Source: Candidatus Thorarchaeota archaeon
GTDB taxonomy: Archaea; Asgardarchaeota; Thorarchaeia; Thorarchaeales; Thorarchaeaceae
Direction: 5' to 3'
Assembly: GCA_048884965.1 (NCBI GenBank)
Contig: JBHLQH010000033.1
Coordinates: 1-39,505 of the forward strand
DNA length: 39,505 nt
How positions within the stretch are numbered: position 1 is the stretch's first letter; each line of letters opens with the position of its first letter. The notes beneath the pieces were generated by a model that searched no databases, was not told where the DNA came from, and saw only the letters and a list, made by a program, of their open reading frames with translations. The translations under genes and the position numbers were made by a program. Below are positions 4,141 through 9,553 of the stretch, piece by piece.

Positions 4141-4171
4141 TTCATAGGGAGTATACTTAGACCAAAACCAT

Positions 4172-4259
4172 GACCCCGGCGGCCGTATTCAAGGTTCAAA
4201 ATAGATGTGCTCTTCCGGCGTACATCCCCCTCTATCTACGCTGGGGTCGCCCCCTTTTT
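4172..4259 (+). other. GC-rich stem-loop element followed by a T-tract (terminator or small RNA)
   Basis: GACCCCGGCG (4172-4181) pairs with CGCTGGGGTC (4239-4248) with one G-U. Inner stem GATGTGC (4204-4210)/GTACATC (4220-4226). TTTTT at 4255-4259. Confidence 0.45.
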
Positions 4260-4297
4260 CTCATACTCCTTCCACCCATTTCATACTCGGAAACTTC

Positions 4298-4314
4298 GGG
4301 AATAGGTTATATTG
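4298..4314 (+). promoter_or_regulatory. Putative BRE/TATA promoter of the homocysteine operon
   Basis: Purine-rich GGGAATAGG followed by TTATAT (4307-4312). Archaeal spacing puts the TSS at about 4336-4340. Confidence 0.5.
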
Positions 4315-4339
4315 GAATTTGCATCGCAATCGCACGCCA

Positions 4340-4492
4340 GACGAATCGAAAAGTATCCAGTAATTGCTTGAGTAGGGGAAGCGACAGCTCATCGAGAAGA
4401 TGGGTTGTTAGATTTAGTGCAGATTACCATCAAACTAGTTGGGACTAGGATAGGTAGGAATCTCGCACCTCGATTCGTCAGATACTACTTTT
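4340..4492 (+). ncRNA. Candidate structured cis-regulatory 5' leader (riboswitch-like)
   Basis: Perfect 10-bp long-range stem 4340-4349/4470-4479 enclosing nested stems whose G-U pairs work only on the + strand. Lies upstream of the Met-precursor operon. Confidence 0.45.
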
Positions 4493-4537
4493 GTGATTCT
4501 CGGATTCCTTCGAAGCGTCAATAGGAGGTAAAAGAAC

Positions 4538-5899
4538 ATGGTTGAACAAATAAGAACTGTAGAGGAAATCAATGAGCGAATCAAGAATGGTGATGCACAC
4601 GTAGTTACAGCATCTGAGATGAAGGGAATTGTAGCAGAGCTCGGTGCTGAAAAGGCCGCCTATGAGGTTGATGTCGTTACGACCGGTACATTCGGTGCGA
4701 TGTGCTCATCTGGATTGTGGATGAACTTCGGGCATTCTGAGCCTCCTATGAAAATGTCGCGAGTCTGGCTGAACGATGTGGAGGCCTATGCAGGAGTAGC
4801 TGCAGTTGATGCCTATGTTGGAGCCACCCAGCTCTCTGAAACGCATGGCATGGACTATGGTGGAGGACACGTTATCGAAGACCTTCTGAGGGGAAAGGCA
4901 GTACACTTGCGAGCTGAGGCATATGGCACTGATTGCTATCCGAGAAAGGAACTATCCATCGATATATCTCTTGAAGAGATGAATCAGGCGATCTTGTCCA
5001 ATCCCCGAAACGGGTATGAGCGCTATGCAGTCGCAGTGAACACAACTGAACGGACTCTCTACACATACATGGGGAAGCTTCTTCCTGATTTGGGGAATGC
5101 TACATTTTCTGGTGCAGGTTCCATTGCTCCCATTCTGAACGATCCTTCCTATCGTGCAATTGGCATAGGGGCTCGAATTTTCCTAGGTGGTGCCCAAGGT
5201 TACATTATCGGACGAGGGACTCAGCATAGCCCAACGACTGGCTTTGGCACACTGATGGTCCAAGGGGACCTCAAAAAGATGAGATCCGAGTATCTCAAGG
5301 GTGCTACCATGACGAAATATGGAACCACGCTCTTTGTTGGGCTTGGAGTACCTATTCCGATTCTGGACAGAAGGATGGCTGAGGCAACTGGGATAACTGA
5401 TGATAGGATAATAACAAATGTCTTCGATTACTCGCAGCCCACTCGTAGTCGTCAGTCCTTGAAACAGGTCACATATGATGAGCTAAAGGCAGGTGCTCTC
5501 GAGATAGGTGGTCGAGAGATTAGTACTGCACCTATCTCTAGCTTCAAGGTCGCTGAGAGAATAGGAGAGGAGCTGAGGCAGGAGATTCTCTTAGGCAAGT
5601 TCTATCTCACCTCTCCCGTTGAGCAACTCTTTCAGGTAGAGGTGTGCAATCCTATGACCCAACGAGCTGTGTCCGGTGAGCCACTGCAGCTCAGGATTGC
5701 GCCTACTGTACCTGAAGGTCAATCTGTGATTAGGATGGCAGATCGATGCATTCACTGTGGGCTCTGTGTTTCCTACTGTCAAGCAGGAGTGTTCCAGCGA
5801 AGTAAGGATGGCACCATTGTCGATAATCCTGACCTTTGTGTAGAGTGTGGCGAGTGCCAAGATATTTGTCCTCACTTGGCCATTGGCACAAGGAGCTGA
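4538..5899 (+). CDS. Homocysteine biosynthesis protein (DUF39, MA1821/MJ0100-like aspartate-semialdehyde sulfurtransferase) fused to a C-terminal 2x[4Fe-4S] ferredoxin
   Basis: RTVEEINERIKNG, VDVVTTGTFGAMCSSG, YGGGHVIEDL, GTDCYPR. C-terminal CIHCGLCVSYC and CVECGECQDICP. SD GGAGGT upstream. Confidence 0.9.
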   Translation: MVEQIRTVEEINERIKNGDAHVVTASEMKGIVAELGAEKAAYEVDVVTTGTFGAMCSSGLWMNFGHSEPPMKMSRVWLNDVEAYAGVAAVDAYVGATQLSETHGMDYGGGHVIEDLLRGKAVHLRAEAYGTDCYPRKELSIDISLEEMNQAILSNPRNGYERYAVAVNTTERTLYTYMGKLLPDLGNATFSGAGSIAPILNDPSYRAIGIGARIFLGGAQGYIIGRGTQHSPTTGFGTLMVQGDLKKMRSEYLKGATMTKYGTTLFVGLGVPIPILDRRMAEATGITDDRIITNVFDYSQPTRSRQSLKQVTYDELKAGALEIGGREISTAPISSFKVAERIGEELRQEILLGKFYLTSPVEQLFQVEVCNPMTQRAVSGEPLQLRIAPTVPEGQSVIRMADRCIHCGLCVSYCQAGVFQRSKDGTIVDNPDLCVECGECQDICPHLAIGTRS

Positions 5900-5910
5900 G
5901 GTGGTGGCAA

Positions 5911-6633
5911 TTGAAACGTCAAAGCATCAGAGTCGATGAAACGATTGCAACCATCACAGCGGAGGAGCACCTAATTCCGCCTGCCCTGAAGTTGGTACAA
6001 GAATCTCGGGAGTTGATACTGAGTTACATCAATGAAGACCCTGAGTTCGAGTCCAGCCTCAGTCCTGTGGACGTTTCCAAGAATGCTCCTGTTCTCATTC
6101 GAAGAATGGCGGAGGCAAGTGCCATAGCTAACGTTGGACCAATGGCCTCTGTGGCAGGAGCTATCGCTCAGTTCGTCGTTGAGGGTTTGGTTGCAGATGG
6201 CGCTGACCATGTTATCTTTGATAATGGTGGAGATATCGCTATGTATCTGAGTCAACCGGTCATTGCAGGTATCTATGCGGGTCCCACAGCGATCGATGGT
6301 CTTGGTCTTCGGATTTCATCTTTAGGGACACTCCTTGGCCTCTGCACGTCGTCTGGGACTGTTGGGCACTCGTTCAGCTATGGCGTGGCTGATGCAGCGA
6401 TCGTATACTCCCCCGATGTGGCGCTAGCTGATGCAGTCGCGACAAGGCTAGGTAACCAGATTACCGTAAGAGACCCTGAGATCCTCACTTCCTCAATGAG
6501 GGCTGTCATGTTTGATGGAATCGAGGGAGTCATGACCATTCTAGGGGATGCGATTGGAACCTGCGGTCATTTGCCTGAAGTTGTCAAGGCGAATGTAGAT
6601 TACGACTTGATCTCAAAGGCTTGGGAGGTATGA
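5911..6633 (+). CDS. UPF0280/ApbE-like protein (MA1715-like, sulfide assimilation)
   Basis: VGPMASVAGAIA, DNGGDIA, CTSSGTVGHSFSYGVADA, ALADAVATRLGN. Start moved to TTG 5911 after the SD GAGGTGG (track start 5836 overlaps the upstream gene). Confidence 0.88.
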   Translation: MKRQSIRVDETIATITAEEHLIPPALKLVQESRELILSYINEDPEFESSLSPVDVSKNAPVLIRRMAEASAIANVGPMASVAGAIAQFVVEGLVADGADHVIFDNGGDIAMYLSQPVIAGIYAGPTAIDGLGLRISSLGTLLGLCTSSGTVGHSFSYGVADAAIVYSPDVALADAVATRLGNQITVRDPEILTSSMRAVMFDGIEGVMTILGDAIGTCGHLPEVVKANVDYDLISKAWEV

Positions 6634-6636
6634 ATC

Positions 6637-7704
6637 TTGGGGAAGATACGAGTAGGCATCTTTGGCGCAACGGGTATGGTTGGCCAACACTTCGTTAGGT
6701 TGCTTCACGACCATCCTGCCTTTGAACTGGTGATGGTGACCGCGTCAGAGAGGTCACGAGGGATCAGATATCTAGATGCGACTGACTGGATGATTGGAAG
6801 CACTATGCCTGAATCGGTTCATGACCTGATACTCCAAGAAACCACCGCGACTGCTCTGCAAATCGAGGAGGTCGATGTAGTGTTCAGTGCGCTTCCCTCA
6901 CAGATCGCTGGTCCTGTGGAGGATGATGCTGCATCCATAGGAGTCCCTGTCTTCTCGAACGCAGGGGCACATAGGATGCGACCTGATGTTCCCATCCTTA
7001 TACCAGAGATAAATTCCCAGCATCTGCAGCTAGTCAGTGAACAGAGATATGCCCCAGGATTCATCGTCACCAATTCGAATTGCTCTACTTCTGGACTCGT
7101 CTTCGGCCTCAAGCCATTGATGGCATTTGGTCTGGAAGAAGTCAATGTCACGACCATGCAAGCGGTTTCCGGTGCTGGGAGGAGAGGTGTGGCGTCCTTG
7201 GACATTCTCGGGAACATCATTCCTCACATCAAGAATGAGGAACAGAAGATGGAAACAGAGCCACAGAAGATACTGGGCTCTCTCGTTGACGGACGTGTGA
7301 GGTCAGCAGATTTCAGAATTACTGCGACTTGTACCCGAGTCCCTGTTGCGAATGGTCATCTCGAAAGTGTTTCTGTGAAGTTGAAGGAGGATATATCCGC
7401 TGAGGATGCGATTAGTGCCTTCTCGGAGTTTGCTGGAGATATCCCATCACTAGGATTGTCAACTGCTCCTATTCGACCAATCACTGTGTTTCTGGAACAC
7501 GACCACCCACAACCCTCAAGAGATCTCTTCACCACAGACGATCCATTAGGGATGAGTATAAAGATAGGACGAGTCAGAAAGAAGGGTGACTCGATTCAGT
7601 TCATATTACTCGTACATAATACGATGAGAGGTGCTGCAGGCGCATCAGTACTGAATGCAGAATACGCCTTTCATACTGGGTACTTGGATGAGGTGATAGC
7701 ATGA
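6637..7704 (+). CDS. asd: Aspartate-semialdehyde dehydrogenase (archaeal/fungal type)
   Basis: GATGMVGQ, NSNCST catalytic Cys, QAVSGAG, CTRVPVANGH, HNTMRGAAG. Confidence 0.95.
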   Translation: MGKIRVGIFGATGMVGQHFVRLLHDHPAFELVMVTASERSRGIRYLDATDWMIGSTMPESVHDLILQETTATALQIEEVDVVFSALPSQIAGPVEDDAASIGVPVFSNAGAHRMRPDVPILIPEINSQHLQLVSEQRYAPGFIVTNSNCSTSGLVFGLKPLMAFGLEEVNVTTMQAVSGAGRRGVASLDILGNIIPHIKNEEQKMETEPQKILGSLVDGRVRSADFRITATCTRVPVANGHLESVSVKLKEDISAEDAISAFSEFAGDIPSLGLSTAPIRPITVFLEHDHPQPSRDLFTTDDPLGMSIKIGRVRKKGDSIQFILLVHNTMRGAAGASVLNAEYAFHTGYLDEVIA

Positions 7705-9074
7705 AGGTGATGAAATTCGGAGGAGGCTGTCTTCGTGATGGTCAAAGCTTCATTAGGATTGCAAAACTGCTTAGGGACGAGCCTTTTGGTCAGACTGTCA
7801 TTGTGGTATCTGCCATCAACGGTGTCACGAATTCCCTTGAACAAGCAACCCTATCTGCCTTGGAGTCTGAAGGTAATATTTCTCGATTCATTGAGGACAT
7901 TCGGGCCCTGCATGAGAACATCATTCAAAGTGCCATTCAAGATCCCAAGACCCAAGAGCACATCATGAAGATCATTGAGTCGAAGATCAGAGCATTAGAA
8001 CGACTCCTCTATGGCATATCCTACACTGGTGAGATAACAGATACTGTCCGGGTCATCGTATTGAGCCAAGGTGAGCGTCTGTCTGCCATAATTCTAGCTG
8101 CAGTACTATCCGAACATGGTAAGAACGCTCGTAGCTTCGAAGCAGACAAGATCGGTATCGTGACCGATACAGTCTGTGAGAACGCCACAGCGAACCTCTC
8201 AATGGTTAGAACCAACCTTCAAGAAAACCTAGTGCCTTTGATTCGACGAGGAATCATTCCTGTCATCACTGGATTCTTTGGCTGTACTGAGGATGGCAAA
8301 ACCTCCTCCTTTGGACGCAATGGATCTGACTATAGCGCTGCAGTGATTGCTCATGCCCTTGAGGCTCGTGAGGTGTACATCTGGAAGGATGTGGATGGAT
8401 TCATGACAGCAGACCCTGGTCTGGTCCCGAGTTCCAAAAGGATAAAGCATCTCTCATATATGGAAGCTGCTGAGCTCTCATATTTCGGAGCAAGGATTCT
8501 GCATCCCCGAACTGTAGAACCCCTCATGGGCACTAATACGAGGATCTACATCAAGAACATACACTCGCCCAAGAATGCAGTGACCCTTATCGAGGAGTCT
8601 GGCCATGAGGAGAAGGACATAGTCAAAAGCGTGACCTATAATGATAAGATTGCGGTACTTAGGATTCATGGAGCTGGTGTCGGGCATAAGCCTGGTATCA
8701 TTGGAGAGATAGGAAAGACCCTTTCTGATGCTCGGATCAACATCTTCTCCGTATTGACATCACAGACTTGTATCAATCTCCTTTTGGACAATAAGGATGC
8801 TGGACGTGGCATTGACGCGCTTAGGCCGCATGTCGGAGGTGTAATAGAACGACTTGAACTACGAAATGATGTAGCCCTCATCGCGGTCGTTGGCCAAGGT
8901 CTTGGGAATAGAGAAGGTCTCGCAGCCCGTGTCTTCTCAGCAGTCGCTCAAAAATCCATCAACGTGGAGATGTTCGCAGCAGGTGCTTCTCATGTCGCGT
9001 ACTATTTCATCGTCGCTCAGAAGGATATGCAAGGTTCTATTGCCGCTGTCCATGATAGCTTCTTTGGAATCTAG
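7701..9074 (+). CDS. lysC: Aspartate kinase with C-terminal ACT domains
   Basis: VMKFGG, VVSA, GERLSA, GRNGSDYSA, DVDGFMTADP, ELSYFGARILHP. ATGA overlap with asd. Confidence 0.92.
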   Translation: MKVMKFGGGCLRDGQSFIRIAKLLRDEPFGQTVIVVSAINGVTNSLEQATLSALESEGNISRFIEDIRALHENIIQSAIQDPKTQEHIMKIIESKIRALERLLYGISYTGEITDTVRVIVLSQGERLSAIILAAVLSEHGKNARSFEADKIGIVTDTVCENATANLSMVRTNLQENLVPLIRRGIIPVITGFFGCTEDGKTSSFGRNGSDYSAAVIAHALEAREVYIWKDVDGFMTADPGLVPSSKRIKHLSYMEAAELSYFGARILHPRTVEPLMGTNTRIYIKNIHSPKNAVTLIEESGHEEKDIVKSVTYNDKIAVLRIHGAGVGHKPGIIGEIGKTLSDARINIFSVLTSQTCINLLLDNKDAGRGIDALRPHVGGVIERLELRNDVALIAVVGQGLGNREGLAARVFSAVAQKSINVEMFAAGASHVAYYFIVAQKDMQGSIAAVHDSFFGI

Positions 9075-9553
9075 ATTTGGGAGGTGTATCCTCCCTCTTT
9101 TCTTGCTTGCATGATGCTCAAAACAAGCTGTGTTGCACTTGTTGTAGGGATATACCACCAGTTCAGACGACCTGATGTCTTGGTGATATGTACCCATTGA
9201 GCGTTTGGATAGAAATATTGGAAATTAGCCCACCATGGTGGATAGTCCACAAGCTCGGAATTGGTGATTCTCTCAAGGGGAATCTTGATGGTCCAAAGTT
9301 TCCCATGACGGATCCATACTTGTCTTCGGGTCACCACTACCTTTGTGGGGACGACTAAGAGGTAGGGTATTGAATAGACAAAGAGCGGCACGATAACCCA
9401 CAGGATAAGCCCCCAGTATCCCCATTCAGGCTCCATCAAGAATATCAACAGGAATACAGGTGACATGACAAAGAAACAAGCGAATGCTACAGCTCGAATG
9501 AATACATGATCGTACGGTGGCCGATCTGTGAGGATAATCTCTTCTGAAGTCAT
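9071..9553 (-). CDS. Membrane protein with two TM helices and a bacterial-PH-like domain
   Basis: Two hydrophobic helices, then beta-rich VVTRRQVWIRHG...KIPLERIT. Confidence 0.65.
   Translation of the reverse strand: MTSEEIILTDRPPYDHVFIRAVAFACFFVMSPVFLLIFLMEPEWGYWGLILWVIVPLFVYSIPYLLVVPTKVVVTRRQVWIRHGKLWTIKIPLERITNSELVDYPPWWANFQYFYPNAQWVHITKTSGRLNWWYIPTTSATQLVLSIMQARKEGGYTSQI

Follow-up and report, generated by a model that had tools for sequence, protein, structure and literature searches.

A candidate two-state RNA leader before the aspartate-to-homocysteine operon of a Thorarchaeota genome

Known leader switches and the Thorarchaeota operon

Protein-controlled leaders of bacteria, such as those of TRAP/trp, PyrR/pyr, HutP/hut, ThrRS, and the ribosomal proteins, combine mutually exclusive helices with a short conserved sequence. 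The Thorarchaeota leader described here resembles them in both respects and in its tie to amino acid or nucleotide pathway control, but it has an archaeal promoter, and its switching strand starts at the very 5′ end in a switch that spans the whole leader. Metabolite riboswitches couple mutually exclusive folds to an expression platform, an arrangement seen in the leader on computational and comparative grounds (strongly for a long rod formed by its 5′ end, moderately for the competing helix P1, and at the level of base composition for the pairing that covers the Shine-Dalgarno sequence, or SD); however, the aptamers of such riboswitches are conserved in sequence and fold, and the leader has no domain conserved in this way. 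Like the SAM-I riboswitch (RF00162) and its clan in their translational OFF type, the leader lies before methionine and sulfur genes, has an early P1 that would free an anti-SD, and is predicted to follow OFF logic. Unlike them, it has no model match and no conserved core words, four-way junction, kink-turn, or pseudoknot, and its interior sequence turns over inside one archaeal family. On the folding model it would work like bacterial anti-SD switches, but it goes unrecognized by the tests that define their families; the Rfam models and conserved motifs of the lysine riboswitch and the T-box are also unmatched.

Leader-peptide attenuators, such as the mycobacterial polycysteine leaderless ORFs (bioRxiv 10.1101/834739), offer a similar case, in that occupancy of a 5′ strand would govern access to the SD of a sulfur amino acid operon; the Thorarchaeota leaders, however, lack a conserved AUG mini-ORF or a run of Met/Cys codons. 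The fluoride riboswitch of Thermococcus kodakarensis, named in a 2021 paper as the sole natural riboswitch of archaea established by experiment (PMC8241225), is likewise an archaeal leader thought to control translation, but it has a small conserved pseudoknot common with bacteria and precedes unrelated genes, whereas the Thorarchaeota leader has no Rfam match. Titles and abstracts on archaeal riboswitches and attenuators, which cover the literature incompletely, yielded no published description of the leader. RNA switches are barely documented in archaea, and this leader sits on a complete amino acid pathway; if our reading is true, it would be, to our knowledge, the first archaeal RNA switch shown to respond to an amino acid or to SAM, and it would belong to a type that escapes motif-based searches. 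It would also make RNA-level control of biosynthesis, and its sensor, directly testable in the Asgard relatives of eukaryotes.

The window, by which we mean the whole 39,505-nt stretch analyzed (contig C33), is part of a 4.09-Mb genome that is 96% complete. It contains an operon preceded by an RNA leader of roughly 200 nt, and the nearest relatives of the first gene carry Thorarchaeota labels. The genes of the operon are as follows.

4538..5899, + strand: DUF39/HcyBio homocysteine biosynthesis enzyme with a fused 4Fe-4S ferredoxin domain (PF01837, E = 1e-139, plus Fer4)
5836..6633, + strand: COG2122/UPF0280 (ApbE-like) protein (PRK04334 models, E = 1e-76, under the curated cutoffs; PF27030 in orthologues); the start at 5836 is probably called too far upstream
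6637..7704, + strand: aspartate-semialdehyde dehydrogenase, asd (TIGR00978, above cutoff)
7701..9074, + strand: aspartate kinase (ask) with ACT domains (TIGR00657, above cutoff; PF00696)

The synthesis of homocysteine from aspartate semialdehyde by DUF39, ferredoxin, and COG2122 proteins is an established route (PMC5764234). The distribution of the operon is patchy, with asd in 17 of 86 family genomes, almost the same set as those with full-length DUF39. Neither homoserine dehydrogenase nor DapB was found in the window's genome, which leaves homocysteine as the known exit for aspartate semialdehyde and makes the operon look dedicated to methionine. Searches with PF01717 and PF02574 detected no methionine synthase, although divergent core synthases could escape these models. 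One relative, G014 (locus L142, 1430-1669), has kept the leader and asd/ask, while all that is left of its DUF39 gene is a decayed N-terminal piece of 79 aa that overlaps the start of asd. Its leader is nevertheless intact (z = −5.9 for the rod and −3.4 for P1), and the signal may thus extend more widely to asd/ask. Either DUF39 was lost only recently or asd/ask are served by the leader as well, and this genome therefore weakens a strictly homocysteine-specific reading. Another genome, G061, has two copies of the operon (L089 and L141, on contigs C77 and C35) with diverged leaders of the same architecture, which may reflect strain mixing.

A conserved convergent gene follows aspartokinase (9071-9553, − strand) and its product, probably a membrane protein, is similar to PH-domain proteins of bacteria. 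It was rejected as a regulator because its resemblance is to these membrane proteins and not to a transcription factor. An Lrp/AsnC regulator occupies the place of this gene in a Hodarchaeota locus (L173).

Proposed competing pairings of the leader's 5′ end

The features of the leader and its promoter are listed below.

4280..4302, + strand: operator-like DNA site, CATAC then TCkGA-N4-TCkG, immediately upstream of the BRE/TATA and outside the coordinates of an earlier sequence-only reading of this DNA
4307..4312, + strand: TATA box TTATAT (from sequence; at the equivalent position in orthologues)
4336..4339, + strand: predicted 5′ end GCCA (from orthologues)
4340..4375, + strand: purine-rich 5′ switching strand, predicted to form the ON rod with 4485-4519 or, through its first 10 nt, to form P1 (OFF) with 4470-4479
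4370..4375, + strand: SD-like decoy GAGUAG, at the end of the 5′ switching strand
4383..4409, + strand: 11-bp hairpin present in both folds, changed in sequence but kept in the three closest relatives
4412..4468, + strand: variable inner domain including hairpin 4435-4448, with neither sequence nor fold kept between groups
4470..4479, + strand: 3′ strand of P1 (OFF), with a core GAUUCG that is invariant in the four closest leaders and dispensable for the ON rod
4485..4492, + strand: pyrimidine tract, predicted to pair with the decoy GAGUAG (ON) or with the SD (OFF)
4485..4519, + strand: 3′ strand of the ON rod, separated from the SD by three bases
4523..4529, + strand: SD AGGAGGU (from sequence; kept in orthologues)

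Twenty-three leaders were collected and sorted by eye into 11 sequence groups. Four more were fetched as a late check, one of which (L203) lacks the operator and was left unscored, giving a total of 26. These leaders are 169 to 300 nt long, nearly all end in a GGAG-type SD, and with few exceptions they are preceded by both a TATA box and the operator-like site (L086 and L092 have no operator). Between groups, leader identity is 59%, compared with 54% for shuffled sequence. One of the contigs (L006, CAZWAO010000108.1) was binned as Ignavibacteria and is probably misbinned; it has the Thorarchaeota operator, TATA box, and leader and is very similar to the Thorarchaeota group.

The sequence-only reading had placed a TATA box at 4307-4312 and a start near 4336, and orthologues back both: GCCA starts 28 to 31 nt after the first T of the TATA box (ACCG in L172). 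The near-invariant bases of the leader lie at this 5′ end only (GCCA..A9), with C2 and C3 invariant in 26/26 leaders and A9 present in 25/26. GCCA is no general start motif in the window's genome, where it occurs at 5 of 707 TATA-like sites. The predicted start thus lies well away from the ATG at 4538, as that reading had held. Its view of a long, structured, conserved leader before an Asgard homocysteine operon also holds up, as far as can be judged from sequence. No conserved upstream ORF was found; the ORF of 92 aa at 4170-4448 is cut short by stop codons in L166 and L168.

The predicted folding energy of the 205-nt leader is −60 kcal/mol (z = −2.56), and 2 of 200 shuffles did as well. All the helices proposed earlier lie where that reading placed them, and most pair fully when G-U is allowed (4340-49/4470-79, 4354-58/4448-52, 4383-93/4399-4409, 4435-39/4444-48, and 4352-57/4481-86). 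The perfect 10-bp stem, our P1, is present, and such a stem has a chance rate of 1.1% in shuffles. The bulged stem at 4360-73/4412-27 does pair, but in three pieces, and G4448 belongs to two of the pairings described as nested. The crossing helix AGTATC/GATACT pairs in the window but is not kept in L166 and G014 (alignment A1, by inspection). The idea of mutually exclusive folds is supported, but this particular helix is not.

In the architecture common to the leaders, which the sequence-only reading did not name, a 45-nt strand at the 5′ end pairs with the 55-nt segment immediately upstream of the SD. In the window this rod comprises helices 4340-43/4516-19, 4346-50/4509-13, 4355-58/4502-05, 4362-67/4493-98, and 4370-75/4485-90, and it ranks third among the 470 TATA-anchored upstream regions of the genome. 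The rod duplex beats shuffles in most of the 23 leaders, with a mean z of −3.1 for whole-leader shuffles and −3.8 when segment composition is kept. Furthermore, in 21 of the 23 leaders, the 3′ segment pairs better with its own 5′ strand than with that of any other group (mean, −30.5 versus −18.1 kcal/mol). Combined with the low identity between groups, this cognate preference indicates that pairing has been kept through sequence turnover, and it provides alignment-free evidence of compensatory change. The sequence-only reading had proposed structural conservation in orthologous leaders as a check, and the rod is indeed kept across groups. The three scored late leaders, all with the operator and GCCA, have rod z values of −2.2, −0.8, and −2.9 and P1 z values of −0.2, −2.0, and −2.2, such that each has one or both helices. 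Leaders that keep pairing while losing identity would be invisible to Rfam-type searches, and more may therefore be hidden.

P1 takes the same 5′ strand as the rod. Early pairing of the 5′ end in P1 is significant in 11 of 23 leaders, with a group mean z of −1.8, and is seen in shortened-transcript folds of most leaders; in about half of them, it is nonsignificant (e.g., L166, L034, and L092). The 3′ strand of P1 is group specific (−19.2 for cognate versus −14.0 for other-group strands). Among the four closest leaders, six of seven P1 pairs never vary, and both folds are 80 to 83% paired, compared with 32 to 55% when the strands are slid; double-sided changes in these four are not above the shuffle control. 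Comparison of the genomes thus shows the rod and, less strongly, P1.

The computed energies of the two folds in the window are nearly equal, at −59.0 kcal/mol for the ON fold, with the SD free, and −60.0 kcal/mol for the OFF fold, with the SD paired (4486-92/4524-30). The SD-hiding fold is the computed minimum in the window, L086, L089, L141, and L004. In silico deletion of the 5′ 45 nt lowered mean SD accessibility from 0.53 to 0.29, with a decrease in 18 of 26 leaders. However, the anti-SD pairing is no stronger than in composition-matched shuffles (mean z, −0.5 to −0.8; 0.23 versus 0.23). The SD-covering effect therefore lies at the level of composition, and a dedicated anti-SD is indicated only in the closest group, where a single tract is predicted to pair with both the decoy and the SD.

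Support for the rod is, on this comparison, far stronger than that for P1 or the anti-SD, as would be expected if the rod were constitutive and served to protect the 5′ end or to present the SD near it. P1 and SD hiding would then be by-products of purine/pyrimidine asymmetry, and regulation would fall to a protein binding the operator, whose high conservation allows for transcriptional control. With 64% purine in one strand and 37% in the other, alternative pairings cost little. We nonetheless consider this explanation unlikely, because the 3′ strand of P1 is invariant in the closest group and group specific elsewhere, because the SD-hiding fold is the computed minimum in the five leaders named above, and because 170 to 300 nt would be a costly way to present an SD. 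That the leader is regulated and two-state, by whatever means, seems to us likely.

Regulation could also act on transcription, with the alternative fold exposing a U-rich segment to aCPSF1/FttA and the rod hiding it. The archaeal termination factor aCPSF1 is reported to work with U-tracts (PMC8716108). U makes up 25 to 53% of the final 60 nt upstream of the SD, and blocked translation could itself lead to premature termination. The T-tract noted by the sequence-only reading is present as four T's (4489-4492) within our pyrimidine tract, but a terminator role for it is not supported, and no intrinsic terminator was found. U4 tracts are not enriched in the leaders (16 of 26, against 17.3 expected from composition) and are absent from 10, and the rod ends precisely at the SD. 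Attenuation of this kind is thus quite improbable.

The preferred reading is a cis-acting translational switch. During transcription, the 5′ strand would pair first with its nearer partner, forming P1. If P1 persisted, the pyrimidine-rich 3′ segment would be free to cover the SD (OFF). If P1 yielded, the 5′ strand would invade that segment to form the long rod, which would end just before the SD and hold the pyrimidine tract on the SD-like decoy (ON). The switch would in this way control how readily ribosomes reach the operon's first gene. With 26 natural variants and precise coordinates for the ON and OFF helices, cheap tests in vitro are possible without culturing.

Possible signal and sensor

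The natural guess for a biosynthetic operon is an OFF response, with methionine or SAM supply as the signal. A trans-acting protein, possibly one of the enzymes of the operon, would recognize P1 or the invariant 5′ GCCA..GAA end. We infer that the balance between the folds is regulated, that methionine or SAM status is the signal, and that the signal arrives via a trans-acting factor; this specific version of the translational switch is plausible at somewhat short of even confidence. That the leader is a methionine/SAM-responsive Asgard RNA switch built from a pair of long-range helices in competition, together with a small number of invariant 5′ bases and no conserved aptamer sequence, is offered tentatively and with more doubt. 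Rfam does not contain the element, which is probably an RNA switch not described before.

The same two folds could instead belong to a new, fast-evolving riboswitch class, in which the domain closed by P1 binds a small molecule directly (SAM, methionine, homocysteine, or another metabolite of the aspartate pathway). The layout is classical for a translational OFF riboswitch, with an early P1-closed domain, an anti-SD right behind it, and near-equal energies, and the gene context is typical of SAM control. The window's DUF39 protein, which carries the ferredoxin fusion and no CBS domain, also favors direct binding, as do conserved blocks within groups, such as a stretch of 19 nt around 4364-4382 that is nearly identical in three close leaders; however, the need to pair with two partners partly explains such blocks. 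A k-mer search (5 to 8 nt) across the 11 groups found no motif beyond purine/pyrimidine tracts. YAGU was rejected as a core motif, since so common a 4-mer is expected by chance to be frequent. A covariance model of the 5′ domain matched only its training sequences and detected neither an orthologue from another group nor, among 87 genomes, any second locus, a pattern not expected of a metabolite aptamer, and nothing similar to the leader was found before the SAM synthetase gene. With no motif common to the groups and a covariance model that misses the other groups, a trans-acting factor is favored and is somewhat likelier than direct ligand binding, to which we give a low probability.

The SAM synthetase gene (L196 to L200, e.g., L199, 837-1491) lies in divergent orientation to one encoding a small helix-turn-helix protein (184 aa in L199, with CBS domains by eye), and a palindrome, TATTAC-N5-GTAATA, lies between the two in five genomes. 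This pair likely represents a SAM-sensing transcription factor system.

Kinship with SAM-I had been proposed because four short words occur in SAM-I order. The words are present in that order in the window (nominal P = 0.0016, for a pattern loosened and fitted after the fact) but are not conserved in orthologues: ATCCAG occurs only in the window's genome, and L166, a 73%-identical relative, has no ATCnAG, GCRAC, or GTGC. A pattern scan of metagenome contigs gave six chance matches, none of them before DUF39. The covariance-model check proposed earlier, with models of the SAM-I clan, lysine riboswitch, and T-box, gave no match: Rfam found no riboswitch or T-box in the window, in the genome, or, at E values up to 10, in the leader or that of G014; ten orthologous loci had no match at gathering thresholds, and RF00162 had none in the genome at E values up to 1. 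The same scans gave no sign of a P2 kink-turn or pseudoknot (the folding program handles no pseudoknots), and the predicted folds of the 26 leaders have no common four-way junction, in agreement with the earlier statement that this is not a canonical SAM-I. A divergent member of the clan (SAM-I, SAM-IV, or SAM-I/IV) would fit the gene context and the words seen in this one genome, but, with the models silent in leader, orthologues, and genome and the core words absent from L166, it is extremely improbable and was rejected.

Sensing by a ribosome or tRNA would depend on a leaderless mini-ORF located at the 5′ terminus, or on an uncharged tRNA whose NCCA end pairs with a UGGY that otherwise pairs with the leader's GCCA. 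AUG or ACG is found at nt 5 to 6 in most leaders, UGG occurs in the middle of 24 of 26 (a raw count), and bacterial homologues have Met-rich mini-ORFs. Yet there is no conserved AUG reading frame (non-AUG starts may occur), the L166 leader has no AUG at all, no T-box was matched, and P1 in the window has no UGG partner, all of which makes this reading very unlikely.

The mini-ORFs precede bacterial DUF39-ferredoxin genes (Aminicenantes, Planctomycetota, and Clostridia). They are rich in Met and Cys, end in M-I-M-stop or C-C-M-V-M-stop, lie 110 to 350 nt upstream of DUF39 (L009, L010, L011, L015, L016, L019, and L042, with a variant in L012 and L014), and are directly followed by a GC-rich hairpin. 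No Rfam match was found among those regions scanned. Each mini-ORF with its hairpin is a candidate methionine-sensing attenuator, which suggests RNA-level methionine control in the DUF39 gene clade.

The operator-like site and neighboring elements

The operator-like site (4280-4302) is the most conserved stretch among the orthologues. Only two strong sites occur genome-wide (37.6 and 32.1 bits by weight matrix; the next scores 21.9), and none was found before DUF39 genes at 41 loci of other archaea, where GCCA has the right spacing in two. The second strong site lies before the gene for tetraether synthase (Tes, identified by NF045702), at about 60326 on the − strand of G000:C18 (locus L143), and the operator plus TATA precedes Tes in many Thorarchaeota (L114 to L140). 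The start region of the Tes gene differs from the GCCA start, though the operator is common to both. The DUF39 gene and the Tes gene both code for iron-sulfur enzymes, the latter a consumer of SAM. The two form a candidate two-member regulon linking homocysteine and membrane lipid synthesis. The short Tes leader (L143, upstream of 4225 on the − strand; L114 to L140) has a conserved hairpin, ACCACY..AGUGGUGG, which had no Rfam match at gathering and whose 3′ arm is often GGUGGNWCC, resembling a T-box word.

We also found a GC-rich stem-loop 3′ of the methyltransferase gene (4172-4249 in the window, 3138-3222 in L166, and 3145-3228 in L168). It is kept in the two relatives with a changed stem sequence and probably serves the upstream operon as an element for stability or as its 3′ end.
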